From: Neocallimastix sp. 'constans'
Taxonomy: Eukaryota
DNA length: 64,000 nucleotides
Reading direction: 5' to 3'
Assembly: GCA_050613775.1 (NCBI GenBank)
Contig: JBODTK010000121.1
Location: forward strand, 310,001 to 374,000
In this document: positions 9,514 through 60,612 of the stretch, one piece after another
Layout: each line of letters opens with the position of its first letter
How positions within the stretch are numbered: the stretch's first letter is position 1
Position numbers and translations under genes: made by a program
The notes under the pieces: model-generated
The model's database searches: none
Told to the model about the DNA's origin: nothing
What the model saw: the letters and a program-made list of their open reading frames with translations, nothing else

Positions 9514-9546
<33 letters not shown>

Positions 9547-9761
9547 TTTATTTAAATAAAAAATATATATTAATATATTTATAAATAAATAAAATTATAA
9601 TAAATCATAATAGATTCTATATTTTCAATGAAATAAATTGAATTATTCATATTTTGTTATTTTGAATTAAAAAGCCAAATGTCATTTCTTTATACTTATT
9701 ATTATTATTATTATTTTAATATATTATAATAATATAATGTAATAAATAATTATTCATAGTT

Positions 9762-10366
9762 TTACATTGAAACTATGTACTCAATTTTATTACAATATTT
9801 ATTTTCAAAATTATTATTATTACAATAGACATCAAAATTTTTCTTTCTACAAACTTCTTGATAAGTCTTGTAATAGCATGGTCTACATTCTTTTATATTT
9901 TCATTATTTTTTGTTACTTCATGGAAACATTGTTTGACATATATTTTTTCCCAATTACCATTCTTAACTTTATACTGAGTTTTATTTTTTTCTGTTTTAG
10001 TTTCTATCACTGTATTTTGTATTTTATTATTAATATTATTATTATATTTATTATTTTATAAAAAAAAATAATAGGAAGAAAATATATAAATATAATAAAT
10101 TTAATAATATATTTTATAAATTTTTATTATTATTATTTTTTTAATTATTAATTCTAATTAATAATTTCTAAAATTGAATTTCAAATCTAAAAAGTCTATT
10201 TATTATAATAATATATATATATAAAATTACATGTTGCGTTTGCGCAATATACTTTATAATTATTATCTTCACAAATATCTGTTGTTATCTTTTGTGAAGT
10301 AATACGTTCATAACTGTTAAATATACAGTAACATAAAAATAATAGAACTAAATATAAGAATTTCAT
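9762..10366 (-). CDS. Small secreted cysteine-rich protein, two exons (10366-10231 and 10009-9762), about 127 aa
   Basis: ATG at 10366 gives signal-peptide-like MKFLYLVLLFLCYCIFNS...YCANAT. Donor GTAATT at 10230 and acceptor CAG at 10012-10010; the phase-1 join (T+TG) runs in frame into the 9762..10010 ORF (IETKTEK...). Internal repeat DICEDNNYKVYC / EVCRKKNFDVYC. Confidence 0.7.
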
Positions 10367-11140
10367 TTTTCAAGTTTCTTAAATTATGATTTTACTTTTT
10401 TATTTTATTTATTATTATTATTATTAATTATTTTTTTTTTAATACTATTTTTTTTAAAAAAATTTATTTTTATATTAATTAGTTATATTAATATTTTTAA
10501 TTATAAATATATAAATAAATATATAAAAATTTTAAAGATTTTTAATATTTATTAAAATTTATATATATAAATAAATAAAAAATTTATAAAAAAAAAAAAT
10601 TAGTTAATAATATTATAAAATTCTTTAATTAAAGGTTCAAAAAAAAAAAAAAAAAAAAAAAAAAATAGTCAATGTTGCTATTAAGTCTTAATTTAAAAAT
10701 ATTATTTCTCTAATATTTAATTTATAAGATAAGAAACACTTATTTTATATATATTCTATATAAATTTTGGAATATTTTAAGTATATAAAGACCCTTTAAA
10801 AAAAAAAAAATAAAATAAAATAAAAATTTTTGAAATATTATATTATTTAATTATTTAATTATTAAAATTAATGTTTTATCAAAAATTAACAAGTTTCAAA
10901 ATAAAAAAAAAAAATTAATATATACTTTTTTATTTAAAATTCAAAATTATTAAAACTATTATTCTATAAAAAATCTTTATTTATCTTATTATTATATTAT
11001 TATGTGGCAAATCCTTTGTACAATAAACAAATAATTATCAATTATCAATTATTACCATTATTAAATTGATAATTTTGCATTAATGTATTAAATTTATACG
11101 TAATATAACATACATTAATGTATTTATTTTATTTTATTTT

Positions 11141-11171
<31 letters not shown>

Positions 11172-11269
11172 AACTAGGAATAAACTTTATTTAATAATAT
11201 TTATTAAAAAAATACATATGAAAACAAAATACATGAATTTTTATAAATTAAAATTAAAAAACTACATTT

Positions 11270-12978
11270 TTAGGACGAAATGGCCCCTAGTTCTTCCCAT
11301 TCATAGATCATAATACTTTCTAGATAAAAACTTTCATTTTAATCGGTATCATAATTTTTTCTTTTCCTTAATCGTTTCAACATCGATGTTCTTGATAACA
11401 GTAGATAATACAAATTGATCATAGGTGTAAAATCACTAATCACAATAGGAGTAACATTAGTAAGGAATTCCCCAAGCCCCACAAAACATGAAATGAGAAA
11501 AAAAAAAAAAAAAAAACTCTCAAAGGTGATTAAAAGATATTATTAATAAATCATCTTCTTTTCCATGAACCAATCTTTAAGACCTAAATATACTGCACTT
11601 CAGCCAAGAAGGAGACAGAGTACATAAAAATTAATATTATCATCAAAATCTTCCTCTTTATCATAAGAAATATTCAGTGATTTCTCATGAACAATTCGAG
11701 AAAAATTAATAAAAATTTCATGGACAAATTGAATTAATTGTTGCCTATATTCTTCAAATTTAGGACATAAAAGTATTTACTGTGTAAAACCAAATATACT
11801 GTATGAATAACATGATACCGTTGGTATATTTTTGACTAAATGAGAAATAATACAAGAAGGTTCTTTCCACTTTTTAGAGCATCAAATCATCGCCTTAGCA
11901 CAAAAACTAGCTAGAGGAGATGTAAATAAATTCCTTAGACATATTTTATATAGTATTTATTTCTTTTTTATTTTTAAAGCCAAAACTGTAAAACAAACCT
12001 CGATTAAAAGTAGAATGAGCTTTTTCAATGTTCTTTTTTTATTTAATTCTAGAAAAGGAATATAATATGAAAGAACTGAACTAAGAACAAAGAAAACTAG
12101 AATACGAGTTTTTAATTTTTAAAGTAGAAAAGTATGTTCCTATTGGTTAAATATCTAAAGAAAGAGTTAACCGTATAATTTATTTTTACAGTTTATCTTA
12201 ACACTAATTAGAATTAATTCAATGATTCATTTGAAAGGTATTTCAAGATATGTACATTGATTAGTGTTCGGTTGATAGTTCATGCCAAGCATAAATATAG
12301 GATTTTCATAATATCATGAAGGTATAAAGTTCTTAGGATTAGCAACAAGTGTAGTACATTTACTAATTCCAAAGTTCACATTCATTTTTGATAACCCAAT
12401 CATGAGCTTTATTTACAAAGGTTTTTAAGAGAGGATTTTGTATGGGCCAACAAAACAATGTCAGCATTTACCGATGGAATGAATCAAATTTTTAAATTTA
12501 ATTATCTTAGTATTCCTCTTAATATTAATGAAGTGATCAGAAAGAGTCCTGTATTCTTTGGAGAAATCACAGAATATTTGAAGAATGGATAAATCACTTT
12601 TAAGTTTAAAATTTTTAAACCTTTTATAAAAAAATTATTAATCACAATTCTAAGAATAAGATTCTTTAAGTTGCTATTTAGTCATGTTGAAATTGGCAAT
12701 AGTATTAGAAGGGTTATTCATATGATTCATGAGCCAATTAATAAAACCAAAATCAATTTTCGATTTATCTCAAAAGTCTTTGTTTACTGATAGTATATAT
12801 CTATATTCTAAATTATCATTAATGAATTGGCATGAATTGTGGATACCAATATTTAAGCTACCCATACCAGGGATTTTCATGTCTGTATATGATAATAGTT
12901 AACTCTTTGGATGAAATAGTTTTCCTTATTATTATAATGTTTTTTTAACCTTTCCTTAAATAATTTTGTTACAATTTG

Positions 12979-13015
<37 letters not shown>

Positions 13016-26567: not shown

Positions 26568-26585
26568 TGGTGGAGATATCGGGGA
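26568..26585 (+). promoter_or_regulatory. Primer binding site of E1, complementary to tRNA-Ala 3' end (same sequence in E2 at 35167-35184)
   Basis: TGGTGGAGATATCGGGGA; reverse complement ...CCCCGATATCTCCACCA resembles eukaryotic tRNA-Ala 3' ends. Confidence 0.8.
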
Positions 26586-27175
26586 AGAAGAAGAAGAAGA
26601 AGAAGAAGAAGTAGAAGAAGAAGAAGAAGAAGTAGAAGAAGAAGAAGAAGAAGTAGAAGAAGAAGTAGAAGAAGAAGAAGAAGAAGAAGTAGAAGAAGAA
26701 GAAGAAGAAGAAGAAGTAGAAGAAGAAGAAGAAGTAGAAGAAGAAGAAGAAGAAGAAGTAGAAGAAGAAGAAGAAGAAGTAGAAGAAGAAGAAGAAGAAG
26801 AAGTAGAAGAAGAAGTAGAAGAAGAAGGAGAAGAAGAAGAAGTAGAAGATGAAGAAGAAGAAGAAGTAGAAGAAGAAGAAGAAGAAGTAGAAGAAGAAGA
26901 AGAAGAAGAAGTAGAAGAAGAAGTAGAAGAAGAAGAAGAAGAAGAAGAAGTAGAAGAAGAAGAAGAAGAAGAAGAAGAAGAAGAAGAAGAAAACCAAGAA
27001 GAAAACCAAGAAGAAGACCAAGAAGAAGACCAAAAAGAAAACCAAGAAGAAGACCAAGAAGAAGACCAAGAAGAAAACCAAGAAGAAGACCAAGAAGAAG
27101 ACCAAGAAGAAGACCAAGAAGAAGACCAAGAAGAAGACCAAGAAGAAGAGACCAAGAAGGAGAAGACCAAGAAGG
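26584..27175 (+). repeat. Purine-rich (GAA)n microsatellite with GTA interruptions, grading into a 12-nt GAAGAAGACCAA repeat
   Basis: Direct reading; lies immediately after the PBS in the E1 leader. Confidence 0.95.
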
Positions 27176-27313: not shown

Positions 27314-27878
27314 CACACTTTTACAATCATCATCATCAAATTTTTTTTTATTGTTATCGGTTTTGTGTTGTTGTTGTGGTTGGTGTTGTTGTTGTGATTG
27401 TTGTTGTTGTGGTAGTAATAAAAATTAACATCAGTTTTATTTGGTCTTCGCGTGCTCCAAATAAAACTATATACTGAGTTTACTGCGTACTAAGCAGTTA
27501 TAGATAATTCTATAATTGCGAGTGGTTTAATCAGGTGTTTGGAGAGGGGCCGGTTACGAACTAATCGAACCCCGATTAGATATAGCGGTAAATACTGTTG
27601 GGAAGCAGAAATTACCCTATAGATCACCCATTATACGTTCAACACGGTTTGGGTGCTCCTCCACTTGACTCAGGCAAATTCACTTAGTATACCGAAATAC
27701 TAAGGTCCCTCTGCGTGGTCGGCAGTTGTAATAGATAGCGGTTTTTCAAGTTGTATTAGGTTTGTTAATTTACCTTGTTTTTAATTAAGTTTATTTGTTT
27801 TTTTTAAGTTGTAATTATATAAACTTAATAATAATTGTAATTGTAATTGTAAATATTGTAATAATAACCGATAACAAA

Positions 27879-27909
<31 letters not shown>

Positions 27910-28280
27910 AATATTAATTTTTGTGTTTTTAAATATTTTTAATTGCTATATTAATAAACTTTTTTTTTGTAAATAATTGTACATATTTTTTTTATTTAAG
28001 TAAAGATAAACGAAAGGGGTTATTAGCTTGAAAGAATAGTGAACACTCCAACTAGTTTATTAATTTATATTTATTCTAGTGTCCAGGAGGGGGAGTACGG
28101 GTGTATATAGCAAAATTAAATATACACTAGCCGGAAACGTCTCACTAGAGATATAAATTACTTAAATATATAATTTTAATTGTAAATAAATAAATAAATA
28201 AAAATATAGCAATTAAATAATTAATAAAACAATTTTTTTTTTATTTTTTTTTTATAAAGTGTGTTTTTTTTTTTTTTAAA

Positions 28281-33274: not shown

Positions 33275-34805
33275 CTTGAGTTTTAGAGGGGGCATCATGG
33301 TAAAGAATGAATTAATAACCTTTATTTTATTATTAATAATTCTTTACTAAATTGTACTTTCCTATATTCTTGATAACCTAAACTTAATAATAAAATTTAA
33401 TTTATTTTGATATAAATTAATTTTAACTTGTAAATAATGTAAATAAATTTTAATTATTTTATTGTTATATTATTAAATATATGTATATTAAAATACAATT
33501 GTAAATATTAAAATTATACTTTTAAGATACTAAACTATTAAAACTATTAATTAAATATTATTATAAAAATTATTATAAAATTATTAAAATTATTAATTAA
33601 ATATTATTCTAAAAATTATTATAAATTATTAATATTATAAAATTATTAAAATTATTAAATATTATTATAAAAATTTATTTATTATAACTATTAAATATTA
33701 TTATAAAATTATTAAGATTATTAATTAAATTTATTATTAAAAATTATTATTAAAAATTTTTACTTATTATAAAAATTATTATTTAAATATTATCAAATTT
33801 ATTAATTAAATATTATAAAAATTTTATTTTATTTTGAAAATAATTACAAGTATTATTTAAAATAATTAAAGATTATTAAATTTATTATATTAATCTTTAA
33901 AAACAATTTATTTAACTTAAAAATATCAAAGAAAATAGTAAAAACTATTTTCTATATATTTATTTTATAATTATTTTTAATTAAATTATATTTGAATATT
34001 ATATTATTATATTTATAAAAATTAAAACAAAAATGAATTATTGATATAAAATTAATTCAATAATTCTATAAAATTACTTAAATTATAAACAATTAATTAT
34101 ACTTTAAATTTATAAAAAAATATAAATATTGTAACAATTTCTTAAAAATTAAATATGTGTACTTTAAATAATAAAATTTTATATTAATAAAAAAAAATAA
34201 ATAACTTTTAATAAAGAATTATTTTTTTTTTTTTTTTTAAAATCAAAGCAGGGTAATACCCGTCCCCCCCTGCTTGATTTTAAATATCTAAGTGTCAACC
34301 CCGAGTCTACCATTTTTGATAAGAATGTACTAAATAATGCATTCTTAATTAAATCTACGATTTATTTCTAATACATTATGTGTACATTATTATTTTTGTA
34401 CTTTAATAAATTTTTAAATCCAAAGATCAAAAATTAAATCAAAAATTATATTAAACTTTATATTTTTATATTAAATCTTATATTAATAGTAATATTTTTA
34501 TATATTTAAAACTTATATTAGCAATATTAATAATAAATCTTATTTTTTTTTATATTAATAATGAAAATTTATATTAATAATATTTTTATATATTGATAAT
34601 TAAAAATTTATATATTATATTTTAACTTTTTATTATAAAATTTTATATCGAAATGTTTTATTTTATATTGAAAAATATTTTATTTTATTAAAAACCTTTA
34701 TATTAGAATAGTATTTTTATTTTTATTTGAATATTTTAACAGATTGTAATAAAAATTATAGCCAATTAAATAAATTCTTATTAGTAATATTTTAAATATT
34801 TTTAA

Positions 34806-34846
<41 letters not shown>

Positions 34847-36196
34847 TTTTATTAATATTATAAATGTATTTTATTTATATTGTTATAATTAAATTTTATA
34901 TAATTAATTATAAAAATCAATTTAAATTTAATAGTTTTTATAAAAAAAAAAAATAAATAAAATGTAATTTAGTGGCAAGAACAACTTTTATGCCTTGAAA
35001 AAAGTATAAATAGTTGTAAATTTTGCTACTAATTTTTAAATATCATCAAATAAAATCAAATAAATTTAATAAAATAAATAAATAAAATAAATAAATAAAT
35101 AAATAAATAAAATTTGTGTTTCTTTACTTTATTTTTATTTAATTCTCTAAAACCTTAACATTTATATGGTGGAGATATCGGGGAATTAAATAGAAATAAT
35201 AGTAAATAACATAGATTTTTTTTAATTTTTTTTTTATTTTATATTGATAAACAAGTAAGTCGTTAATCCTTTGATTAACCTATGGCGCTTGTTTGATATA
35301 TATATATAAAAAAAAAAAAAAAAAAAAAAATTTTTTTTAAATAAGTAAAATTAAGATTCTAAAAAAAAAAAAAAAAGATTGTAAATTATAACAAGGAGCG
35401 GATAGAGCTCATACACAGTGTATTTCCAGAAAACAACAAAATATCTATTATTCATAGTAGGTTATTGGATAATAGTTATTTTGGGAATTAATTGGAAAGT
35501 AGACGAAGGTATTTGGTTACCGACCCGGTAATAATAGTTCAGCCTTCAACGTTTCAACACACGAAGGTGCGGGTACTTTCCAAGCACTGGCGAATAAGGA
35601 GCTTACGTCACCGAAGGCGTAAGATTGTTTTTTTTTATATTTTTTTTATTTTTCTTTGTGCTAGTTATAAGGCACTTTATTATATAAAGTATCAGACTTT
35701 GGCTAACTTCGACATTTAAATTTTTTTTTTATTTTTTTTTATTACTGGTACTTTATTTGTTATATAATTCCTGTAATAGAATCTTAATTTACTTTGAAAA
35801 TATTGTGTTTTTAGTTAATTTTTATTAGTTAATAAAAATATTATTGAATACTTTTAAATTTTTTTTTATTCCGTACATAGATTATCGGATTAAGTTTATC
35901 CTACATAGTAATTGGGCTAGTAGGCTCTGAACTGCTATATTTTATATTGAATATAGTAATCGTGGCACACACGTGGCATGACACCATTAGGTAAGCTGCA
36001 CGTCAGACAGTGTGTACTATCAGATTGTACGACAATAAAGATTATTTTTTGTGTTTAATAATTATAATTAATAATTTTATTAGCTATAACAATACAATAT
36101 TTATCGTTTAAAAAGAAAAATTTTTGAAAGGTGAAAATAATAAATAAAACTTTGCTTCTAAATTTATTACTACAAATATACTAAATTACAAAATTC

Positions 36197-36466
36197 AAGT
36201 GGTCGATAAAGATTTCGAGCTTGAAAAATATTCTATTAAGTTGTCGATAAAGATTTCGAATTTAAAATTATTCTATTAAGTTGTCGATAAAGATTTCGAA
36301 CTTAAAATTATTCCATTGAGTTGTCGATAAAGATTTCGAACTTAAAAATTATTCTATTGAGTTGTCGATAAAGATTTCGAACTTAAAAATTATTCTTAAT
36401 AAAGTAGTCGAAAAGAACCTCGTGCTTTATAATTTCTACTAAGTTGTCGATAAGGATTTCGAGCTT
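36197..36466 (+). repeat. Seven tandem ~40-bp units (AAGTTGTCGATAAAGATTTCGAACTTAAAATTATTCTATT) in the E2 leader
   Basis: Units start near 36197, 36238, 36278, 36318, 36359, 36402 and 36441; each is an imperfect inverted repeat. Confidence 0.9.
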
Positions 36467-36641
36467 ATATCTACTAAAGAAAGCAAATAAAATTATTATT
36501 TTCAAAAGTTACTAAAATATATTGTTTTAAAAATTGATTCTATATTAAATTACCTATTAAATTATATTTTTAAAGTTGTATTTCCAAATTGATTCTTATT
36601 TAATCACCTCATTAATATACAACAAGAAATATTTAAACAAA

Positions 36642-37553
36642 ATGTCCAAGGAAACAACTTTGAGCTTTAAAGAATTGAAAAAAGAATTAAGAGATATTGT
36701 GAAACTTAGCAAGGACAATTTAGATATTAAGTCCTGGGCTACTGAATTAAAACTTTGGATCAAGATACAAGGTATTACAGATCCAGAAACAATATTTAAT
36801 GCTTGTTTACTTACCAGCTCTGGTGAAGTACAACGCGTTATTGAAGATTTGGGAGAAGATAGTGATGATGAAAGTGATGATTCATCAGATGAAGAAGAAG
36901 AAGATGATGAAGAAGAAAATGTTGATGATGATATTAAATTTCCTTCTCTTGGAAAAATTATTTCAAGTCTTGAAAATTTTTACGGTATTAAAGAAGATCA
37001 AAATTTACTTCTTAAAGAACTTCGTGCAATGCGAATTAAAAGAAACGAAAAGATTAAAGACTTTAATGTAAGATATAGAACTTTGTACACTAAACTTGAT
37101 AAAAAGAGAAGAAAGCGCATTGGTGTACTAGATTATATTGATTCTATTTAAAATAATTATGAAGCCTGGAAGAAATTATCCCTTAAAGATGATATAAGTA
37201 TGGAGAAAGCTTTCAAAATTGCCGAGAAAGTAGATAGACTTTCTGTAAGGAACAATAATATTAATACCTATAATGTTAATAATTCCCAACATAATCAAAA
37301 TAATCAAAACAGTACTACTTCAAGACTTTATCCTAAAAGAAGAAACGAAACTTTCCAAACAAGTCAAACAAATAATAAACTGAAACCTCAAGATATTATA
37401 GAAGAATCAACCCAGAAAATGAGAAATTTATCTGTTAAAACTTGCTTCTTCTGTAAGGAAGAAGGTCATTACTCATACTATTGCCCTCAATTAAATAAGA
37501 TTATGGAAAAAAATAAAAAAGAAATATATTCCAAAAAGTCTTTAAACTTCTAA
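36642..37553 (+). pseudogene. gag: E2 gag with premature TAA at 37149-37151
   Basis: MSKETTLSFKELKKEL... aligns with E1 gag; ATT TAA AAT corresponds to E1 ATT GAA AAC; CFFCKEEGHYSYYC knuckle lies downstream in the same frame. Confidence 0.88.
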
Positions 37554-40500
37554 ATGGGAGCAGAAGCACTCCCAATGACAAAACAATAGCTTCATTAAAT
37601 AATTTACAAAAGAATCTAATTATCAAGAATACTCCAATTGATAATAATTCCTTCAAAGAAGAATCTGATTTTAGTGACACAACTGAAAGTGAGGATGATA
37701 TCATTATAAATGCTATAAAAAGAAAAATGAATAATAATAACAGAGAAAAAGAAGAAAATAATTCCAAGAAAGTACATAAAAGTTTAAAAGATAATCCACG
37801 TCCTTTCGCAACTCCTGCTTTAAGAAAGAAGAAAGAAAATGAGCTACATAATAAACCAAATAAAGTTTATAAAAATCAAATACTTCCTTCAATTTTAACT
37901 CAACCAAATATTAACAAAGAAAAACAAAAAGAAAAGGAATTAAGAAATATAACAAGAGTAAGAGAAAGTAAAGAAGAAAACAACAATTATTCATCAAAAG
38001 GAAAGGAAAAAGTTGAATCTGAAGATATACTTGTAATCGATAATGAAATAGAAGATCTAGAAATGAATAAAGATAATCAACAAAATAAAACTAATACTTT
38101 GGAAAAATTAATTTCAACAAAAACTAAAGAAACTAATAATGAAAATACTCAGTTAGTAAAAAGGAATATCAAAATGATGAATAATAAAGAACCTTACAAT
38201 ATTATGGATGATTTAAATAATCTTAAATCCAGTATTACGATAGGTCAACTCTTGAATGCATGTCCGAAAATTCGTTCACAATTAACTCAAGGTTTAAAGT
38301 TAGAAAAATCTAAAATAATTGGAACTGTAGACAATGTAATAGCACGAACTTTATTAGTGAATAACTATGATCATAGCTACATAAGTAAAAGTAATGAAGT
38401 AGCCGAAGAAGACTTAGCAATGGTTGATGCAAGTGTTGACGGAGTACTAGGAAAACTTTTAATTGATTCTTGTAGTAACCTAAGCATCGTTACTAAGCAG
38501 TATTTTGATAAATTACCTGGTGAATATGAAACAGTTGGAAAAAGTCGTGGAAGAATCCAACTAGCAACACAAGATGAAGAATACTCGGAAGGAATTATTG
38601 TTCGATTACCAGTAAAAATTAATAATTATGAATTTAATGCGGACTTTAGAATTATTGAGAAAGAAGACTCATTTTATGATATGTTAATAAACTTTAAAAC
38701 TCAAATCGATCATTGTTTATTTATTCATCCGACCTTAAACAATTTATGTAAACTTTTGTCAGAAAGTGAATACGAAGAAATAGCTAAAATAAATAATCAA
38801 TATTATGATGAAGAAAGTATAATTTGCACTATTAGAAAAGTTAAAGAAACGAATAATGAAAAGGAAATTATAAAGGAATTAACTCCAAAGGAATTTATTG
38901 AGAGTGATTGTAAAATGTTCCTTATGGAGCAGATTACAATTACGAAAATAAAAAAAAAAAAACAACACTATCAATAACAATACTCAAATGAAATTTATTT
39001 TTTAAAAAAAATTCTTTTATTAATCACTTTATTATAAAAATTCTTTTTATTAGTTATTAACTGCAAAATAGTTAATAACAACTACATTTTCTTTAATAGA
39101 ATAATTTTACATGTATTTATATTTTTTCTTAATTATATTATAATATACTATTTCTATTTATTTAAATATATATTCAATATAAAATAAACAAAAACTAATC
39201 TAAAATTAAATAAAGTTATAAAAAACTAAAACTAATTCAATAAGCTTTTTATTCAATTTGTTTTGACTCAAATTGAATAAGTTCTTATTTATTATTTATT
39301 TATTATTCTTTTATTATTAATACTATTAATTATATATTACTATTTAATTTTTATGATTATTAAACTAAACTAAAATTAAACTAAACTAAAATTAAACTAA
39401 ACTAAAATTAAACTAAACTAAAATTATTAATATATTTTATTACTAAATTTTAGGTTATTTAAAAATTAATTTTATATTTTTAAATTTATATATTATATGA
39501 AATATAAATTTATTATTAATTTTCATAAATCAATTAATTTCATAAATTAATATATTTTACATAATTTAATGCATTAGCATTATTTTGTAAACGTGAATTA
39601 CATTAAATAATTTAATGTACAAAATAAATTAATTAATGTACTAAAGATATTGATCATATCTTTACAGTGATGAATTTTTAAGTACCTTAAATAAAGATTA
39701 TAAAGAACAAATTATTAAAATTCTCAAAGAAATGATTGACATAGTTGCCACTTCAACAGAAGAACTAACTCCTTCTAAACTTTCACCACATAAGATCCGT
39801 TTAAAAGCAAATTCAAAGCCAGTAAAATTAAGAAGTTATAGGTTAACTAAATTAAAATCAGATATCTTAAAAGAAGAACTTACAAAACTTATTAAGAAAG
39901 GATTGATAGAACCATCCTGTTCAGAATGGTCATCTCCAGTAGTACTTATTCTAAAACACAATGGAAAGTGGCGCTTGTGCATTGACTACCGAAAAGTCAA
40001 TGATATGACAGAAAAAGATTCTTATTCAGTTCCATATATAGATGAAATTTTTGATAGTCTCGGAGGAGCTAAAATATTTACAACTCTTGATTTATTTTTT
40101 GGTTTTCACCAAATCTTAATGGATGAAGAAAGCGTTGAAGTAACCACTTTCACTACTAAGTTTGGAAATTATCAATTTAAGGTTATGCCTTTTGGACTTA
40201 CTGGAGCTCCCTCAACCTTCCAAAGAGAAATGAATAAAATTTTATTCCCTTTTATTGGTGAATTTGTTTACGTATTTATTGATGATGTTTTGATCTATTC
40301 AAAAAGTATCGAAGAACATTTAATTCATATTAAACATGTATTAGAAGTATTTAAAGAAAACAAGTTAAAAATTAATATTGAAAAGTGCCATTTTCTTCAA
40401 ACTGAAGTTGATGTATTAGGTCACAAACTTACTACTAAAGGATTAAGTCCCATGGAAAGTAAAATAACAGCTATTAAGAAGAGGGAAGCCCCTTCATCAA

Positions 40501-42305
40501 TTCATGAATTAAGATCATTTCTAGGAGCAATAGGATATTATCGTGACTTTATTCCTAAATATGCTCAAATTACCTCACTTTTATGTAAATTATTGGAAAA
40601 TAATACTAAATATGAATGGAATAAAGAACAACAAGAAAGCTTTGAACTCCTAAAAGAAAAATTAATCAATGCACCTATTCTAAAATTTCCGTCATTTGAC
40701 AAACCTTTTATCATTAGAACTGATGCTTCGTATAATGGAATTGGTGGAGTTCTTTTACAAAAAGAAGAAGAAACCGGTAAGGAGCACCCAATACACTTTA
40801 TAAGTAGAAGTTTAAAGAAAGCTGAAAAGAATTATGGTATTACCGATTTGGAAGGAACCGCTTTGTTTTACTGTATGACTAAATTTAAATCTTATATTGA
40901 AGGAAATCCATTACCTACAACTATTTACACAGATCATAAACCATTAGTTGGTTTATTTAAGAATAAAGAACCTTTGAATGCAAGGCAAACAAGATGGTGT
41001 CTAACCGCTAGTATGCTTGGAATTAATATAAAATATGAATCAGGCAAAAAGAATGTGTTAGCTGATGCTCTTTCAAGAATGAAAAGTAAGGAAGAGAGAA
41101 AGATATTATTAACAAAAATTACTAATGGAAATAATGAAGAATTATTATCTAAGGTTATAAAGGAATTTATTAATGAAAAGTTTACTGTTATTGATGGTGA
41201 AGATTACTTTATCGACAATGGAAATTATAGAAAATTAATAACGGACGAAAATGAAAGGTTTAAATTAATTTTAGAAGCTCATAATATTGGCCACGAAGGA
41301 TATTACAAAACATATCAAAGACTTAAGAAAAACTTTTATTGGAATCATATGATTAAAGATATCAAAAGAATTGTTAGTAATTGTGAAAAATGCCAGTTAA
41401 ATCGTCCTCAACCATATCCAGAACCAACCGAAAACCATCCAACTAAAGTGGAGGGTCCCTTTGTGCATTTAGGATTAGATATTATAGGACCGTTACCAAA
41501 AACAAGAAATAATAATCAATATATTATAGTAACTGTTGATTACTTTACCAAATGGGTTGAAGCCGAACCCACTGAAAACATAACTTCCTCTGATATAATT
41601 AAATTTTTAATAAACGTTTTTGCAAGACATGGTGTACCTCAAGTTATTACTACTGATAATGGAGTCCAATTCACTTCTGATATGACTAAAATCTTTCTTG
41701 ATCTTTATGATGTATATGTTAAATTTGTAGCTACTTACCACCCTGAATCAAATGGCCTTACTGAAAATCGAAATAAAGAAATTGGAAAATTACTCCGTTT
41801 ATTAGGAAGGAAAAATCAAGATTGGGATGAAGTTTTACCTTCTGCTTTATGGGCACTTCGAACTACCAAAAATACAGCTACTGGACATTCTAGTTTTGAA
41901 TTAGTATATGGAAGAGAAGACCAACAGCCTTATGATATAGCCATAAGAACAATTGAAAATGCAGGTAAATCATATGATGAAATTTTAATGGAAAAATTTG
42001 TTCGTCATTATCAATGGACTAGAGAAGCATGCGAAAATGTGAAGAATGCTAACAAGTATTGGGCAACAAGACGAGAAGAACAAATAAGTATGAAAAAAGG
42101 AAAAGAATTAAAGGCTGGTGATCTTGTTCTTGTTAGAAACTTTAGCCGCACTAAGCTAGAACCATATTACAATGGACCATTTAAAATTTTAAAAATTCAA
42201 TTCAACACGGCAACCCTAATCGATCAGAAGACTGGAAAGCAACTCGATAGGAATGTTCACTTTAAAAATTTAGTAAAGTTTAACTCCGCTTACAGAGAAG
42301 CTTGA
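37541..42305 (+). pseudogene. pol: E2 pol, split by a nested solo LTR
   Basis: -1 frame open from the TTTAAAC slippery site; LLIDSCS protease. Removing 38909-39666 and one GTGAT restores EFIESD-EFLSTLNKDYKEQIIKILKEMID, colinear with E1. Confidence 0.9.
38909..39666. mobile_element. Nested 758-bp solo LTR with 5-bp target site duplication GTGAT
   Basis: TGTAAA...TTTACA termini; GTGAT at 38904-38908 and 39667-39671. Confidence 0.9.
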
Positions 42306-42812
42306 GTCTTCGTCGGGGCATCTTGATAAGAATGTACTAAATAATGCATTCTTAATTAAATCTATGATTTATTTCTAATACATTATGTGTACATTATTAT
42401 TTTTGTACTTTAATAAATTTTTAAATCCAAAGATCAAAAATTAAATCAAAAATTATATTAAACTTTATATTTTTATATTAAATCTTATATTAATAGTAAT
42501 ATTTTTATATATTTAAAACTTATATTAGCAATATTAATAATAAATCTTATTTTTTTTTATATTAATAATGAAAATTTATATTAATAATATTTTTATATAT
42601 TGATAATTAAAAATTTATATATTATATTTTAACTTTTTATTATAAAATTTTATATCGAAATGTTTTATTTTATATTGAAAAATATTTTATTTTATTAAAA
42701 ACCTTTATATTAGAATAGTATTTTTATTTTTATTTGAATATTTTAACAGATTGTAATAAAAATTATAGCCAATTAAATAAATTCTTATTAGTAATATTTT
42801 AGATATTTTTAA

Positions 42813-42853
<41 letters not shown>

Positions 42854-43170
42854 TTTTATTAATATTATAAATGTATTTTATTTATATTGTTATAATTAAA
42901 TTTTATATAATTAATTATAAAAATCAATTTAAATTTAATAGTTTTTATAAAAAAAAAAAATAAATAAAATGTAATTTAGTGGCAAGAACAACTTTTATGC
43001 CTTGAAAAAAGTATAAATAGTTGTAAATTTTGCTACTAATTTTTAAATATCATCAAATAAAATCAAATAAATTTAATAAAATAAATAAATAAAATAAATA
43101 AATAAATAAATAAATAAAATTTGTGTTTCTTTACTTTATTTTTATTTAATTCTCTAAAACCTTAACATTT

Positions 43171-52520: not shown

Positions 52521-55401
52521 AAAGGGGGCGTCATGTTACGGAACTAGCCAAAATACAATAAACTAATGATTTAAATTATACAATTCGAAATTATAATTAA
52601 ATTTAATAACTTTATATGTTAATTAATTTAAACTATTTTTATAATTTCATAATTTTATTTTTAATTTAAAATAATTATATAAATTATCAAATTAAATTGA
52701 TTAATGACTAATTATTAAATTATTATTATTTTATTAAATTGATTAATGACTAATTATTAAATAATTATTATTTTATTAAATTGATTAATGACTAATTATT
52801 AAATAATTATTATTTTATTAAATTGATTAATGACTAATTATTAAATAATTATTATTTTATTAAATTGATTAATGACTAATTATTAAATAATTATTATTTT
52901 ATATTAATTAAACTGATTTATTATTATATTTAATTATTATTTATATTAAAATGTTTTAAGAATTATATTATCGAAAATATTATCAATAATTTTATTGTTA
53001 AATTTATTAATTTTATCATTATTAATATTTTGTCATTAAAAATAATATTAATTATATTAATATTAATATTTTTATTATTAAAATAACTTTTAAAAATATT
53101 ATTAAAATCACATGTAATAATTAATTCTAATAAGAATTAAAATAATTATAAAATTCATGTAGTAAAAAAAAAATATAAAAGAAAAAGAAAATACTTAATA
53201 AAAAATTTAAGAGTTAATAAAAGATAAAAAAAAGAAAATCTAATTATTAAGAATATATTATTTTTGAAAATAAAAATTTAAATTATTCGAAATCCTGCAA
53301 CAATTTGTTGTAAGAATCTATAATTATTTTTAACAAAATAATTATATTTTCTTAGTTAGGTTATAATTAATATAACTTTTATTAAACTCATATGTCATTT
53401 ATACAATTAATTATAATTAATAATTTATTTAATTATATATTAAAATTTTATTTAGTTTAATATTAAAAATTTATTTAATTAAATAATATTTATACATTTA
53501 AAATAATATTAAATTTATTTAATTATTCACTTAATTATTAAATTTATTAGTTTTAGTTTTCTCTCACTTATTAAATCATAAACTAAAACACTATTCTGTA
53601 TTTTATCATGTATTCTGTATTCTATCATGTATTCTGTATTGTATTAATCATGTATTTTATTATTAATGTATTGTTTTATATTTTTTATGTAAAGTTCTAT
53701 AAAATAGAACTAAATAGATTAAATTTTAAATTTTATGATCGAAATAATTTTCATTGTTTTATTCTTTTATTTTCGATCATTATATTAGATTAAGTAATCG
53801 GTTAATTAAGGTTTTTCCAATTACTTCTTAAAAGTAATCGGTTTTACTTAATTAACGCGACGATCGATATGGATAGAATATCGATCAAAAAACTTATCTA
53901 GGTTTTTCTTCTAGTCTTTTCCTAGATAAGAGATTTGTTAAGATTAGAACCCCTTTTGATTTTAACCTTATTTTGAAAAAAAAGTATAAATAAGGCTCTT
54001 GAGTTCTCTTTGAGAAATCAAGAGTTATTATTATAACAATTATAATATAATAATAATAACAATAAGTTTTAACATTTAAAATTTTTAATAAAAAATAAAA
54101 CAAATTATTTTAATAAAACAAATTTTATAATTAAAACTTTTCCTTATCAATTTTAGTGTTTCGTCTATTATAATTCGTTATAATAAACTCGATAATTAGA
54201 AAGAACCATAGGTAAGTATGATTCTTTTCTAAACCTTTAATATTAGCAGTTAGAGCTAATATTAATGATTAATAATTTAATTATAATTTTTTAATTAAAT
54301 TATTACAATAATAACTCTTCTTAGTATAGTTTAATAGAATAGTTAATTAATTTAATAATATAATTAATTTCTAGAATCAAGTAGTACAAAATAATTTAGT
54401 GTAGTACAATAAAAATTTTTATGATTGAAAATAAATAAAATAATATAAATTATATAGAATAATCTAGAAATTAAAAAAATAAATTAATATATAGTAAATA
54501 AATTAAATATTAAAATATAAGTAGATAATATTAGTAAATCAGATCAAAAATCATTAATTAATAATTTAGTATAGAAATTATAAGAATAAATTAATATAAA
54601 CCATAAATTAAATATTAAAAAATAAGTAAATAGTAATAATTAATTGGATAAATAATTAAAATCATAAAAAATTAAAAGAATAGATATATAGTAATAAATA
54701 ATAATAAATAATAATAAATAATAATAAATAATAATAAATAATAATAAAATAATAATAAATAATAATAAATAATAATAAATAATAATAAATAATACTAAAT
54801 AATACTAAATAATAATAAATAATAATAAATAATAATAAATAATAATAAATAATGATAGTAAATAATAAATGATAAATGATAAATGATAAATGATAAATAA
54901 TAAAAAAAATTAAACAACAATAAATAGCAATAATAAAATAAATAATAACAATAAGAACACATAAATACACTAACATATGTTTACATGATTTTAGGGAAAT
55001 AGAACTGGAAGAAGTAGGCCAAGGAAACAATATAGAAGAACCAAGACTTAGTACAGACCTTAGAAGCAGAAGTGTGTTAGCATCTAGGTAACAGTTTCCG
55101 GATTAAGTTTATCTGTCACAGGCAGCGATCTGGGCAGCTCTGGACTGGCCTATCCGATGTGTGGTAGGTTGCAATCGTGGTGTACGCGGGAACATGACAC
55201 CAGTAATAGGCAAGCTGCTCCCGTCATTAAGTACATACTACTGTTTACTGCTAACGTGCTTCTGGAAAATCGTCTGGAAATGCTTGAGTATTTTCTTATT
55301 CAACTGTTTTCTTTCGCCAAAACTTCCTAACTATGACCTTATAATCATAATAAACATATATATATATTTCATAGTTAATATAATTTATAATTTAGGTAAA
55401 A

Positions 55402-56145
55402 ATGGAATCCAATAGTAATAACGCCCAAATTCCAAGTGAGGTTGAATCCTCAAAGCTTATAACAGCTTTAACAGAATTTATTCCTACCTTCTTTTCCGCC
55501 GACGTAGTGTTATCCAAGGACTTAGCTGATAACAACAAACTTAACGTTAATGAGCTCCTGGAACAGAGTGAATTGTTTTTTAAAAAACATCCCAACTCTT
55601 TTTCCACGGACGACTTAAAAATTTCTTATGTTATCAGCATGTTACATGGACCTCCAAAGAAATGGGGACTTTCATTGAAGGCTGATGGAACTTTAAATTC
55701 GTTAAGCTATGACACCTTTAAAGATATTTTGATAAGCAATTTTGGGGATACTAAAGAACAGAAGGATGTTCTTATTGAACAACTTCTAAACTTAAAACAA
55801 CTTCATTTAGGAAGAGCCGCATTATATACTATTGAATTTCGAAGGTTAGCTGGACGTATTGGATGGCCGGACGATGTATTCATTGACCTAATCAAAAGAG
55901 GTCTTCTTGAGGATGTTAAAACAGAGTTCAATAAATTAGACAAACCTAAAAGTTTATTTGAGGCAACAAATTCTATTATCAATATTGATAGAAAATGTTT
56001 ACTTAAGCAAAAAGTAAAGACCAATGACTACAAGCCAAAGAGTAGTAAATCTTTCAAACGAAAAAGAAACGAAACTAACATGACCGAAAACAAATTTAAA
56101 CGCAATAAGCGCCATAAGGGACGAGACAATGGAAGTATTTTATAA
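55402..56145 (+). CDS. gag: E5 Gag (retrotransposon capsid-type, basic C-terminus, no CCHC knuckle)
   Basis: 247 aa; FSTDDLKISYVISMLHGPPKKW...YTIEFRRLAGRIGW. Confidence 0.85.
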   Translation: MESNSNNAQIPSEVESSKLITALTEFIPTFFSADVVLSKDLADNNKLNVNELLEQSELFFKKHPNSFSTDDLKISYVISMLHGPPKKWGLSLKADGTLNSLSYDTFKDILISNFGDTKEQKDVLIEQLLNLKQLHLGRAALYTIEFRRLAGRIGWPDDVFIDLIKRGLLEDVKTEFNKLDKPKSLFEATNSIINIDRKCLLKQKVKTNDYKPKSSKSFKRKRNETNMTENKFKRNKRHKGRDNGSIL

Positions 56146-56175
56146 GCAAATTACACCCCAAGTCATAATAATAAA

Positions 56176-59100
56176 ATGACTACAACTTTCTTGTTAACCG
56201 TTAATAACAAAAAGATTAAAACCAGAATCCTTATTGACTCGGGCTCTGCTAGAAGTTATCTCTGCAAAAGCTTCGTAACAGCAAACAAAATTCCTTATTC
56301 AAACCTCTCAAATACGATCAATGTAAAACTTCCTAATGAAAAGAATATGGCTATAAAACAAGTTACAAAACGTCTTAAGCTTACTTTCATGGACCATACG
56401 GAAACATTTGAATTCTTTATAGCCAATTTACAACTTCAAGACGTATCTGCAATCCTTGGAAGAGATTGGTTAAGCCTTCATTCACCCTACATTGATTACA
56501 AAAATAATAAAATTTACTTCTTGGAAAGCTACTGTAAAAACCATTGCCCTTCTGCTAAGGGTAATAGGTTTGTTTTCCATTCATCAGATATTACTGCTTC
56601 TCTCTTACCCAATAATGAACAGAAGGAAGAAATTCCTCTTGACTCAATAATTCCAGATTCCATACCTGAAGACGAACTTAGCGATATGAACATTTGCGCT
56701 GCTTTAGTTCACAATAGTGAAATTAAGAATACCAAAAGAAATAAAAAAACAATTAAAAAATATTATTATGACCTTTGTATTGTATTTGAAAAGAAAGAAG
56801 CTGATAAACTCCCTCCACACCGTGTTTATGATATATCCATTGATTTAGTTCCCTGTGCTCAACTTTATTTTGGACCAATTTATTCGTTGACTGTTGAAGA
56901 AAAGAAGGCACTTCTTGAATACATTAAGGAAAACCTTGCTAAAGGATTCATTAGAAAATCAAAATCTCCTGCTGGTGCCCCGGTGCTATTTGTTAGAAAA
57001 CGTGACGGTTCTCTTAGACTTTGTGTTGACTATAGAAAGCTCAATTCTATCACCATTAGAAACAGTTATCCAATTCCTAGGATATCTGATTTGATAGAAT
57101 CATTTAAAGGTGCTATTATTTTCTCTCGGCTTGACTTAAGATCTGCCTATAACTTAGTTCGTGTCAAGAAAGGCCATGAATACCTTACTGCTTTTCGTAC
57201 TCCTTTTGGTCATTTTGAATACCGTGTAATGCCTTTTGGTTTACGTAATGCACCTTCGGTTTTTCAACGCTTTATCCAAGACATTTTTTCTGATGATATT
57301 GGCTTGTTTCTCTTTGTCTACTTAGATGACATTATAATATATTCGAAAAACCTTACTGAACATATTAAACATGTTCATCATGTCCTTTCCTTGTTAGTCA
57401 AAAATGGTCTCTATGTAAAACTTGAAAAATGTGAATTTCACGTTCCTGAAACTACTTTTTTAGGGTTTGTTGTATCAATAAATGGCCTTTCTATGGATAA
57501 AAACAAAGTAAAATCAATTCTTGAATGGCCTACTCCAAAAAACATGAATGAACTTCAAAGTTTCCTCGGACTCTGTAACTACTATAGGAAATTCATAAAG
57601 AATTTCGCCATAATTATGGAACCCTTAAGAATACTCCTCAAGAAGAATAACGAGTTCAAATGGAATGATGATGCTGAGAATGCCTTCAAAAAATTAAAAC
57701 TTGCTTTTACCACAGACGAAATCCTTATCTACCCCGATCCAGATAAGGAATTCACTGTTGAAACTGATGCCAGTGATTTTGCTGTGGGTTGCATTCTTTC
57801 TCAAGTCAGTGACAAGGATAACGAACTTCACCCTGTCGCTTTTCATTCTAGGTCTTTGTCATCTTCTGAATTAAATTATACAATATATGACAAGGAACTA
57901 CTCGCTATTATCACCGCTTTTGAAACCTGGCGTCACCACCTTGAAGGGGCTAAGTTTCCTGTTCAAATCATTACCGATCACAGGAATTTATTATATTTTA
58001 AAAAGCCTCAACATTTAAACCAACGCCAGATAAGATGGAGCCTCTTTCTTTCTAAGTTTGACTTTAGGATTTCGTTCAGACCTGGATCAAGGTGTGGTAA
58101 ACCAGATTCGTTGTCGAGACGTCCGGATTATAATTCCGTGGTTTCCCTCCACAACAAAGACAGTCCTTTATTGGATGATAATGCCTTTTGTTGTGCAAAC
58201 ACTATTATCAGTAGCTTGATTGATACCCAACCGACTGACAAATTTTGTGGATCAAGGAGTAGTGAACCAGATTCGTCGTCGAGACGTCCGGATTATAATT
58301 CCGTGGTTTCCCTCCACAACAAAGACAGTCCTTTATTGGATGATAATGCCTTATGTTGTGCAAACACTGATAATATTAGTAGTTTGATTGATGCCCAAAC
58401 GGCTGACACATATTGCAAATCTATTTTAGAAAAGATTAAAACTAAGTCAAACACAGTTAAAAGTTCTTTATTTTCTTTAAATGAAGGGGTCTTACATTTC
58501 CAAAACAGAATCATCGTCCCATCCACTTTAAGAGCAAGAATTTTGAAATCTTTTCATGATTCACCCACCAACGGACACCAAGGTATTGACAAAACTCTTG
58601 ATAAAATCAAGAGATACTACTGGTGGCCTAATATGAAGAAAGATATTCATAATTATGTACTTTCTTGTTCAACTTGTGCTAGGTGTAAAATTCGTAGACA
58701 TAAACCCTACGGAAAAATTCAACCGTTGCCTGTTCCCAATAAACCATGGGAAATTATTGGGGTTGATTTTATAGTTTCGTTACCTAGTTCACAAGATTGC
58801 ACATGTATTATGGTGGTTTCGGATCACTTAACAAAGATGATCCATTTAGTTCCTTGCTCCGACGTCCCTTCCGCTGACCTGACCGCCAAGATGCTCCTTT
58901 ACAACGTTTTTCGGTATCATGGATTCCCTAAAATCATTGTCTCTGATCATGGCTCCCAGTTCTCTTCTGAATTTTGGACCTCACTCTGCTCAGCTCTAAA
59001 TACTAAGCCAAGACTCGCTACTGCTCATCACCAACAAACAAATAGTCAAGTCGAAAGGGCTAATTCCGTAATCGAACAATATTTACGATGCTACTGTTCT

Positions 59101-59601
59101 ACTGCCCAAAATGAATGGTGCTTTTATCTACCTCTTTGTGAAATGGCTTATAACAACTCATTTCACAAATCTATAAACATGTCGCCTTTCTGTGCAAATT
59201 ATGGTTTTAATCCAGTATGCAATATTGACTCTCCTCCTGTTCTTTTAAAAGATAATGCCTCTGTACTTACTAGGGATTGGTCTGCCCATTTTGATGCCCT
59301 TAAAAAGCACCTTATCAAAGCTAAAGAAGATTTCAAAAAGTTTGGTGACTCTAGGAAAGCTTCTGGTCCTACTTTCCATGTTAACGACATGGTTTGGTTG
59401 AAAAGGTATTACTTCTCCAATGAACCTGCAAAAAAGCTTTCTAACCAGTATCTTGGACCCTTTAAGGTCATAGAAGTGAGGGAAAGAATGAACTACCGGC
59501 TTGAATTACCAGAAAATCTTCATTTACACCCGGTATTTCATATCTCGCAGTTGGAGCCTTATACTGAAAGAGACATAGGATTAAAGGAACCATCACCATA
59601 A
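56176..59601 (+). CDS. pol: E5 Pol (PR, RT, RNase H, IN) in the same frame as gag after a TAA; carries a 55-aa internal duplication
   Basis: LIDSGSA, YLDD, ETDASDFAVG, HHCC, VDFI/SDHG/E and GPF motifs. Confidence 0.93.
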   Translation: MTTTFLLTVNNKKIKTRILIDSGSARSYLCKSFVTANKIPYSNLSNTINVKLPNEKNMAIKQVTKRLKLTFMDHTETFEFFIANLQLQDVSAILGRDWLSLHSPYIDYKNNKIYFLESYCKNHCPSAKGNRFVFHSSDITASLLPNNEQKEEIPLDSIIPDSIPEDELSDMNICAALVHNSEIKNTKRNKKTIKKYYYDLCIVFEKKEADKLPPHRVYDISIDLVPCAQLYFGPIYSLTVEEKKALLEYIKENLAKGFIRKSKSPAGAPVLFVRKRDGSLRLCVDYRKLNSITIRNSYPIPRISDLIESFKGAIIFSRLDLRSAYNLVRVKKGHEYLTAFRTPFGHFEYRVMPFGLRNAPSVFQRFIQDIFSDDIGLFLFVYLDDIIIYSKNLTEHIKHVHHVLSLLVKNGLYVKLEKCEFHVPETTFLGFVVSINGLSMDKNKVKSILEWPTPKNMNELQSFLGLCNYYRKFIKNFAIIMEPLRILLKKNNEFKWNDDAENAFKKLKLAFTTDEILIYPDPDKEFTVETDASDFAVGCILSQVSDKDNELHPVAFHSRSLSSSELNYTIYDKELLAIITAFETWRHHLEGAKFPVQIITDHRNLLYFKKPQHLNQRQIRWSLFLSKFDFRISFRPGSRCGKPDSLSRRPDYNSVVSLHNKDSPLLDDNAFCCANTIISSLIDTQPTDKFCGSRSSEPDSSSRRPDYNSVVSLHNKDSPLLDDNALCCANTDNISSLIDAQTADTYCKSILEKIKTKSNTVKSSLFSLNEGVLHFQNRIIVPSTLRARILKSFHDSPTNGHQGIDKTLDKIKRYYWWPNMKKDIHNYVLSCSTCARCKIRRHKPYGKIQPLPVPNKPWEIIGVDFIVSLPSSQDCTCIMVVSDHLTKMIHLVPCSDVPSADLTAKMLLYNVFRYHGFPKIIVSDHGSQFSSEFWTSLCSALNTKPRLATAHHQQTNSQVERANSVIEQYLRCYCSTAQNEWCFYLPLCEMAYNNSFHKSINMSPFCANYGFNPVCNIDSPPVLLKDNASVLTRDWSAHFDALKKHLIKAKEDFKKFGDSRKASGPTFHVNDMVWLKRYYFSNEPAKKLSNQYLGPFKVIEVRERMNYRLELPENLHLHPVFHISQLEPYTERDIGLKEPSP

Positions 59602-60612
59602 AGGGAGCAATGTAAGAATCTATAATTATTTTTAACAAAATAATTATATTTTCTTAGTTAGGTTATAATTAATATAACTTTTATTTAACTCATATTTCAT
59701 TTATACAATTAATTATAATTAATAATTTATTTAATTATATATTAAAATTTTATTTAGTTTAATATTAAAAATTTATTTAATTAAATAATTTTTATACATT
59801 TAAAATAATATTAAATTTATTTAATTATTCACTTAATTATTAAATTTATTAGTTTTAGTTTTCTCTCACTTATTAAATCATAAACTAAAACACTATTCTG
59901 TATTTTATCATGTATTCTGTATTCTATCATGTATTCTGTATTGTATTAATCATGTATTTTATTATTAATGTATTGTTTTATATTTTTTATGTAAAGTTCT
60001 ATAAAATAGAACTAAATAGATTAAATTTTAAATTTTATGATCGAAATAATTTTCATTGTTTTATTCTTTTATTTTCGATCATTATATTAGATTAAGTAAT
60101 CGGTTAATTAAGGTTTTTCCAATTACTTCTTAAAAGTAATCGGTTTTACTTAATTAACGCGACGATCGATATGGATAGAATATCGATCAAAAAACTTATC
60201 TAGGTTTTTCTTCTAGTCTTTTCCTAGATAAGAGATTTGTTAAGATTAGAACCCCTTTTGATTTTAACCTTATTTTGAAAAAAAAGTATAAATAAGGCTC
60301 TTGAGTTCTCTTTGAGAAATCAAGAGTTATTATTATAATAATTATAATATAATAATAATAACAATAAGTTTTAACATTTAAAATTTTTAATAAAAAATAA
60401 AACAAATTATTTTAATAAAACAAATTTTATAATTAAAACTTTTCCTTATCAATTTTAGTGTTTCGTCTATTATAATTCGTTATAATAAACTCGATAATTA
60501 GAAAGAACCATAGGTAAGTATGATTCTTTTCTAAACCTTTAATATTAGCAGTTAGAGCTAATATTAATGATTAATAATTTAATTATAATTTTTTAATTAA
60601 ATTATTACAATT

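Follow-up and report, generated by a model that had tools for sequence, protein, structure and literature searches.

A GC-rich island lies just upstream of gag in one of the retrotransposons of the DNA analysed here. Is this island a structured RNA, and if so, what might it do for the element that carries it? The preliminary description regarded it as one copy of a structured RNA (module B), closed by a long stem, and proposed a role in translation initiation.

The whole stretch analysed (64,000 nt; hereafter the window) is very AT-rich and contains four Ty3/gypsy LTR retrotransposons with pol genes, which we numbered E1, E2, E4 and E5 to match the labels of the preliminary description. Twenty sequencing runs, mostly of gut or feces samples, contain the stretch, so that the host is probably an anaerobic gut fungus. 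E5, in whose leader the island lies, spans 53309-60609; its two LTRs differ at 4 of 999 bases, and one of the 12 long relatives of its Gag, named as an Orpinomyces protein, points to such a host as well. From its sequence, E5 looks like an element of the Tf1/Tf2-type self-priming layout: 12 nt of its primer site are complementary to a putative 5' end predicted 35 nt after TATAAA. The primer site of E2, at about 35167, is of the tRNA type and starts with TGG; it is presumably one for tRNA-Ala. The reverse transcriptases (RT) of E5 and E2 are 38% identical and fall in separate, well-supported clades of a 26-row tree, in which E1 and E4 join E2; the Gags of E5 and E2 fail to align (E 0.25). The features of both elements are listed in Table 1.

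Table 1. Positions in the window of the features discussed; helices P0/P1 to P7 belong to the predicted fold and follow E5 numbering.
Feature	Position	Strand	Remarks
Element E2	34316-43167	+	gag ATG 36642; CCHC motif in Gag
E2 rod, module at tip	35798-36102	+	Predicted, z -4.9; kept in L121
Module B core, E2 copy	35872-36031	+	Homologous to E5 core; folding z -3.07
E5 5' LTR	53309-54307	+	3' LTR 59611-60609
TATAAA in E5 5' LTR	53985	+	Sequence
Putative transcript start and self-primer, E5	54020-54031	+	Start predicted from sequence
Donor-like AG/GTAAGT in E5 5' LTR	54211/54212	+	Sequence
E5 primer-binding site	54308-54319	+	Complementary to 54020-54031
E5 rod, module at tip	54975-55359	+	Predicted, z -4.3; encloses 6 of 14 upstream AUGs
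16-bp closing helix	55067-55264	+	Contains the 12-bp stem; specific to E5 family
Module B core, E5 copy	55087-55249	+	163 nt; helices P0/P1-P7
P0/P1	55088-95/55240-48	+	Fold model
P2 (uncertain)	55101-04/55173-76	+	Fold model
P3	55106-22/55129-46	+	Fold model; U/CUC internal loop
P4	55148-54/55163-69	+	Fold model
P5	55177-85/55231-38	+	Fold model
P6	55186-94/55216-24	+	Fold model; conserved UGAC(A)/YAAGC internal loop between P6 and P7
P7	55200-01/55209-10	+	Fold model
Stretch from rod end to E5 gag	55360-55401	+	AU-rich (GC 0.10), AUG-free; candidate splice acceptors 55374, 55395
E5 gag and pol	55402-59601	+	Ty3 capsid, protease, RT, RNase H, integrase, Tf2-like SH3

Several further features of these elements were seen. 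The stop codon at 56143-56145 between gag and pol is private to the E5 copy of the window; a metagenomic copy, L122, has a single ORF of about 1400 codons with no stop there, and a C at 56144 in all four runs lets the two genes be read through as one ORF. In the window's E2 copy, a stop codon falls within gag, and pol is interrupted by an AT-rich stretch. The elements stand head to tail (25546-63800) with few bases between neighbouring LTRs (34312/34316 and 53305/53309), which suggests insertion targeted beside existing elements. In E1, the 3' part of the sequence at the LTR end is similar to the complement of the adjoining primer site, and GAA runs come after that site (26584-27170). The E2 leader has tandem units of about 35 nt after module B (36197-36467), and the E5 leader has A-rich tandem units of 10 and 7 nt (54690-54900) and 29 AATAAA.

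The observation made in the preliminary description is real. The stem reported there, in which 55071-55082 pairs with 55249-55260 (12 bp, of which three are tandem G-U), extends to 16 bp (55067-55082/55249-55264). Long-range helices of at least 15 bp arose in 1 of 200 dinucleotide shuffles and those of at least 12 bp in 15 of 200; that is, the 12-bp stem alone is within chance, and the full helix is beyond it. In L122, which belongs to the E5 family, a C at 55075 makes a C-G pair from a U-G pair of this stem. The stem is specific to the family, since another sequence closes the E2 copy. The GC content of the island is 0.46 (55034-55289), compared to 0.117 at 54001-55000, and the stem ends at 55260, preceding the gag ATG at 55402 by 141 nt, in agreement with the A-rich leader and the distance of about 140 nt described before. 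The conserved blocks said to be common to E5 and E2 were also found: 55099-55240 aligns locally with 35886-36019 at a score of 76 (mean of 1000 shuffles 23.8, maximum 44). Of 155 aligned bases of the two copies, 99 are identical. The statement that G-U pairs place the structure on the plus strand stood in part. The E2 flanks favour the plus strand (-33.5 versus -14.5 kcal/mol on the minus strand), and natural variants of module B give G-U pairs on it; the E5 module (z -1.64 plus, -1.86 minus) and the E5 flanks (-53.0 plus, -51.3 kcal/mol minus) do not tell the strands apart. The folding energy of the E5 module by itself (z -1.64) is unremarkable.

The evidence for structure comes from comparison. 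We drew the fold model from the copies in E5, E2 and three metagenomic loci (L121, L122 and L123). It runs from P1 through a 5-nt linker to P2, which closes a junction of P3 and P4, then through P5, P6 and P7, and returns through one U to the other strand of P1. In the predicted fold, two three-way junctions are thus nested; the bases at the junctions are invariant, and the terminal loops are free. The E5 copy was detected (76.6 bits, E 4e-18) by a covariance model for which only E2 and L121 were used, its structure having been drawn with knowledge of both families. Pairing is possible in 161 of the 165 cells of the fitted alignment, and two-sided changes with pairing kept occur at 17 of the 55 modelled pairs, compared to at most 2 such changes when the partners were slid as a control; this covariation comes from two independent lineages in an alignment fitted to a structure drawn from both. 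Joint folding of the two copies independently bore out part of the model: on a plain MAFFT alignment, RNAalifold recovered P3, P5 and P6 with nine two-sided changes, and showed three more in a helix that we judged spurious. Its pairing of GGAU with the 5' strand of P4 and its helix at columns 101-106 were rejected as artefacts of a 2-nt misalignment.

Contigs from three of four runs carry E2-type variants, with 14 substitutions and 2 insertions on the E2 module. Pairing is kept by 9 of the 11 substitutions at paired positions: five do so through G-U, and four form two compensatory pairs, 35939/35952 (in one contig) and 35983/35992 (phase inferred from depth). Three substitutions and both insertions lie in the P7 loop. 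Of the two pair-breaking variants, 35969 A>C is in P5, its partner being too near the contig end to be seen, and 35960 T>C in P2 is common (7900 of 12792 depth in run X3). P2, the helix that makes both junctions, has no covariation; because its breaking variant is common and its support is conservation, we treat it as uncertain. In single-sequence folding, the pair probabilities of P2, P5 and P6 were at most 0.02, and other pairings were preferred by 5-11 kcal/mol. Since thermodynamics by itself disfavours these helices, P5 and P6 stand on covariation and P2 on conservation. Conservation is as high at unpaired bases (30 of 45) as at paired bases (69 of 110) and the terminal loops are variable, which suggests a tertiary fold or a contact with protein. 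To judge from these substitutions, the structure of module B is under selection, and we infer that the fold forms in vivo. A conserved peptide starting at the core AUG was rejected, as the frames differ (73 versus 26 codons) and one contig has no AUG there.

Such a compact fold raises the possibility of a catalytic RNA. Module B might cleave itself and so process the leader: it has invariant junction bases, in the fold model its two nested three-way junctions follow the order of helices II-VI of the Neurospora VS ribozyme and the last arm has a conserved internal loop (as excerpts of PMC4536322 describe the VS core), and other retrotransposons contain ribozymes (PMC8501958). However, there is no conserved substrate stem-loop or kissing loop, the P4 loops differ and the loop-loop pairing that the copies share is at most 3 bp, and Rfam gave no ribozyme match. 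A cut between the primer site and gag would moreover split the genome, and contigs of RNA-type runs span the module unbroken, although this last point is weak. We consider a ribozyme improbable.

The 12-bp stem turned out to be the top of a longer hairpin, hereafter the rod, at whose tip the module would be held (Table 1). L121 has a corresponding rod (predicted, z -7.2). When the module was removed, the flanks out-paired 500 of 500 shuffles in each of E5, E2 and L121, the E5 duplex reaching the -53.0 kcal/mol given above. The flank sequences of E5 and E2 are unrelated, each family having built its rod from its own sequence. Comparison of the E2 rod with that of L121 gave five changes that are one-sided and compatible with pairing, and one that is two-sided.

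How widely is module B shared? A pattern scan of metagenomes, which would miss diverged copies, gave four stretches, of which one (L124) was a chance match and three were real: L121, a relative in the E2 family, and L122 and L123, two near-identical copies of the E5 family. Both of these carry module B. The E5 module was covered in four of four runs with no listed difference. In run X8 its depth was 4.8, compared to 10.1 over gag, a weak hint that some E5 copies may have another leader. Within the window, the covariance model matched two of the four elements, E5 and E2; module B is absent from E1 and E4. In L146, whose RT is 76% identical to that of E5, the 238 nt before gag, where E5 has the 3' half of the module, are AT-only. 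Module B is absent over 647 nt of L227, the hairpin before gag in L225 is a different one, and the leader of L147 is too short to judge. The covariance model gave no match in 45 Ty3-type loci of other hosts, nor in 11 additional loci that it searched without filters. Pattern scans of viral contigs gave at least 120 (about 170 estimated), 21 and 99 matches, all by chance: the best alignment score among the matches listed was 46, compared to 76 between E5 and E2, and the covariance model rejected the remainder. Protein scans of viral contigs found no relative, and prokaryote genomes gave no pattern match and no covariance-model match (0 of 2 and 0 of 151 genomes). Rfam 15 had no match in the window, the best E values of 5.2 (E5) and 0.35 (E2) being all far below gathering, and no description of this RNA was found in the main texts of the mostly open-access literature searched. 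Module B is thus a real structured RNA, apparently uncatalogued and common to distant fungal retrotransposons. Its patchy spread suggests exchange between lineages or repeated loss.

Over the E2-type module (35850-36050), the summed contig depth in run X3 was about 9,000-13,000, which is not a copy number, and in run X1 the depth was about 670, compared to 65-115 on the left flank. Such depth would mean that many elements or subfamilies carry the module. Two prokaryote genome bins contained fungal-type Ty3/gypsy contigs (L146, L147, L173 and L224-L227), probably through binning contamination.

We then considered how ribosomes might reach gag in such leaders. In non-coding DNA of the host, ATG occurs near the expected rate. 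The putative E5 leader (1382 nt) has 14 upstream AUGs, eight before the rod, six inside it and none after it; the 10 AUGs ahead of the module, compared to 13.7 expected, show no depletion. The stretch from the rod end to gag, of GC 0.10-0.22, is AUG-free in all three leaders (42 nt in E5, 541 nt in E2 and 463 nt in L121; expected 0.6, 9.1 and 8.1 AUGs). Upstream of the rod, E2 has 2 AUGs versus 15.0 expected and L121 has 2 versus 15.5. These last values agree with ribosomes that scan from the 5' end, and less with internal entry at the module. Beyond the rod, ribosomes probably resume; in E2, they probably also scan as far as the rod.

These counts bear on the possibility that module B is an IRES or translation enhancer, which would recruit the 40S subunit or initiation factors so that ribosomes enter downstream of the rod and reach the gag AUG by scanning. 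IRES modules move between unrelated viruses, and a target in the host machinery would explain sharing across lineages; the many AUGs of the E5 leader and the AUG-free paths also agree with this idea. Some Drosophila LTR elements have IRESs (excerpts of PMC3383448). On the other hand, AUGs are as scarce before the rod as after it in E2 and L121, E1, E4 and L146 do without module B, and the core AUG of E5 opens a frame of 73 codons that runs across the gag start in another reading frame. The start codon of type IV and intergenic IRESs directly follows the structure. This is not the case here: the spacers, unconserved, are about 140 nt (E5) and 610 nt (E2), an in-frame stop at 55393-55395 precedes the E5 ATG, and no Rfam IRES matched. 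An IRES is rather unlikely in our judgement, but it is a close rival of the explanation that we prefer below. The earlier proposal that a leader of more than 1 kb fits a role in translation initiation is therefore partly sustained: a link to translation is plausible, and the many upstream AUGs of E5 and the AUG-free path to gag agree with it, while the AUG-poor upstream parts of E2 and L121 and the unconserved spacing do not.

The proposal that the module is of special use to a self-priming element, whose capped 5' end is cut off for priming, fails. Module B is also carried by the tRNA-primed E2, and it is the element's own RT that removes the self-primer in Tf2 (excerpts of PMC5341516), so translation would already have taken place by then.

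Splicing offers another way past the E5 leader. The donor-like site at 54212 and the candidate acceptors 55374/55395 bracket the primer site, the module and all 14 AUGs. No host intron consensus could be derived from the window, and no joint from 54212 to an acceptor was found in the contigs of four runs, three of them RNA-type, a weak result as only contigs were searched. In RNA run X2, one contig tracks the LTR (54007-54217) to the donor-like site and then diverges for 96 unlisted bases. Module and rod together might accordingly control RNA processing, by hiding or presenting splice signals and thus setting the ratio of spliced to unspliced RNA, or by holding U1 against premature polyadenylation. 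A donor-like G/GYAAGC is kept in the core at 55210 and 35991 with only U/C variation, the perfect AG/GTAAGT of E5 stands just before the first upstream AUG, branch-point-like CTAAC lies in paired arms at 55251 and 55327, the 3' arm of the rod has a pyrimidine tract, and the AATAAA signals of the E5 leader are numerous. The loop of the constitutive export element CTE likewise has a 5' splice site beside it (excerpts of PMC4338338). Nevertheless, the U/C change is equally explained by the pairing 35983/35992, E2 and L121 have no common acceptor near gag, the contigs contain no matching joint, and a 160-nt double-junction fold seems more than such a task needs. We regard this possibility as improbable, to about the same degree as the ribozyme.

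Retroviral packaging signals sit between the primer site and gag, as module B does. Module B might therefore be a packaging or dimerisation signal recognised by Gag. It might otherwise be a switch that responds to a ligand, or act as DNA, for instance as an internal promoter. An invariant alternative hairpin, UCGUG/CAUGA, competes with P5/P6, and Tf2 uses a downstream start site (excerpts of PMC5341516). However, the Gags of E5 and E2 are unrelated, a conserved self-complementary loop of the kind that serves retroviral dimerisation is absent since the E5 and E2 loops differ, one divergent contig reads CAAGAC instead of CATGAC and disrupts the alternative hairpin, and covariation argues for RNA. 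This group of possibilities is the least probable of those considered.

The explanation that we prefer, tentatively and at somewhat less than even chances, is that module B is a handle by which a host factor routes the full-length RNA to export or packaging, while ribosomes bypass the hairpin. Module B, with its two nested junctions, would be held at the tip of the rod, and a host factor would bind it and route genomic RNA to nuclear export or particle assembly. Ribosomes would reach gag by passing over the rod through shunting; alternatively, in E5, a spliced mRNA without the whole leader region would serve gag translation. The module would have moved between element lineages by recombination. 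Because the two Gags are unrelated, the partner would be a host factor, for instance one for export or localisation, and not Gag. The homology, the compensatory changes, the position between primer site and gag, the complementary flanks and the AUG-free path all agree with a host-factor handle. In particular, two lineages as distant as E5 and E2 share the module while E1 and E4 do not, each family built a rod around it from unrelated sequence, and the E2 leader is AUG-poor on both sides. The leaders of CaMV and RTBV and the export elements that bind NXF1/Mex67, which are compared below, are precedents. Against it, the AUG-free paths are equally compatible with an IRES, the covariation comes from two lineages, P2, P5 and P6 are disfavoured in single-sequence folding and two variants break pairs, and the contigs of three RNA-type runs do not support the proposed splice. 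The absence of a take-off uORF from E2, the absence of the CTE motif AAGACA and the coat-protein partner of the CaMV signal, all described below, also count against it.

Other structured RNAs were seen in these leaders. Module A (35481-35640 and 27474-27760 of the window, and L121:611-735) is common to E2, L121 and E1, and combines a conserved GTTCAACAC/GTTTCAACAC block with a hairpin that covaries and whose loop reads ACCGAA, besides pseudoknot options found by eye; it has no Rfam match, and such a second GC island is absent from E5. E1 has a different structured island (27993-28168, z -3.86) with a long closing stem about 115 nt before the gag ATG, and this island may take the place of module B in function. 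L225, a Tf-like element, has a 90-nt hairpin (L225:1-95, z -5.1) about 115 nt before gag, whose TGACACC...GG...AGC GTCA echoes the P6/P7 loop and is unscored by the covariance model.

Two lineages with unrelated Gags and different priming keep this fold, and so it must act on the host or alone. We give a chance of one in three, or slightly less, to a bolder reading, in which module B belongs to a new class of autonomous RNA machines, as a fungal IRES or as a ribozyme of VS shape, and is a cassette swapped among gut-fungal retrotransposons as one of several interchangeable leader modules. Complex folds backed by covariation are rarely reported in the leaders of LTR retrotransposons, and none was found for anaerobic gut fungi in the literature searched. 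For the question of how LTR elements divide one RNA between translation and packaging, module B is a well-defined test case. Should it prove to be an IRES, an export element or a ribozyme, it could also become a control part in a group of fungi for which genetic tools are few.

Finally, we compared module B with known systems, as excerpts of the cited sources describe them. In CaMV and RTBV, ribosomes shunt over a large leader stem-loop with a packaging signal on top, and the apical signal of CaMV binds the element's own coat protein rather than a host factor (PMC5902531). These pararetroviruses, and also prototype foamy virus, likewise have a long leader rich in short uORFs, with a big stem-loop, an AU-rich, AUG-free landing stretch and a conserved apical element. 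A large, stable stem-loop is predicted in all three of our leaders, and a UA-rich landing stretch extends to the first long ORF in 3 of 3. The take-off uORF expected just before the basal helix is absent from E2, whose nearest uORF ends at 35296, 500 nt away; in E5 the uORFs end 62 nt before the rod or inside its basal arm (54977-54988 and 54985-55002), and in L121 one uORF, without counterpart in E2, ends at the rod base. Moreover, the apical element here is multi-junction and shared despite unrelated Gags, whereas that of CaMV is purine-rich and specific to the coat protein.

Known export elements include structured RNAs of 150-175 nt to which the host receptor NXF1/Mex67 binds (PMC7551171), and the CTE carries its motif AAGACA in an internal loop (PMC4330393). 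The CTEs of MPMV/SRV and of NXF1 intron 10 are like module B in their size of about 160 nt and in the logic of a host factor (PMC7551171, PMC4330393), and also in having a conserved internal loop that a 5' splice-site-like sequence adjoins (PMC4338338). In contrast to the CTE, module B has no AAGACA (none in E5, E2 or L121) and no two-fold symmetry; it is branched and lies in the 5' leader of fungal elements. With the VS ribozyme the likeness is one of layout: stem-loop I and the kissing loop have no counterpart, and the helix order holds in a model where P2 lacks covariation and has one breaking variant. The IRESs of Idefix and gypsy in Drosophila likewise lie in a long 5' leader before gag (PMC3383448), and the likeness is one of position. 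E5 shares with Tf1/Tf2-type elements a primer site complementary to its putative 5' end, the single gag-pol ORF of its family, a Ty3 capsid and a Tf2-like SH3, but differs in that its leader is about 1.4 kb long and contains a structured module, which also occurs in the tRNA-primed E2. By the features tested, module B thus stands outside the shunt, CTE, VS and dimerisation-signal families, and it may nevertheless work like one of them.
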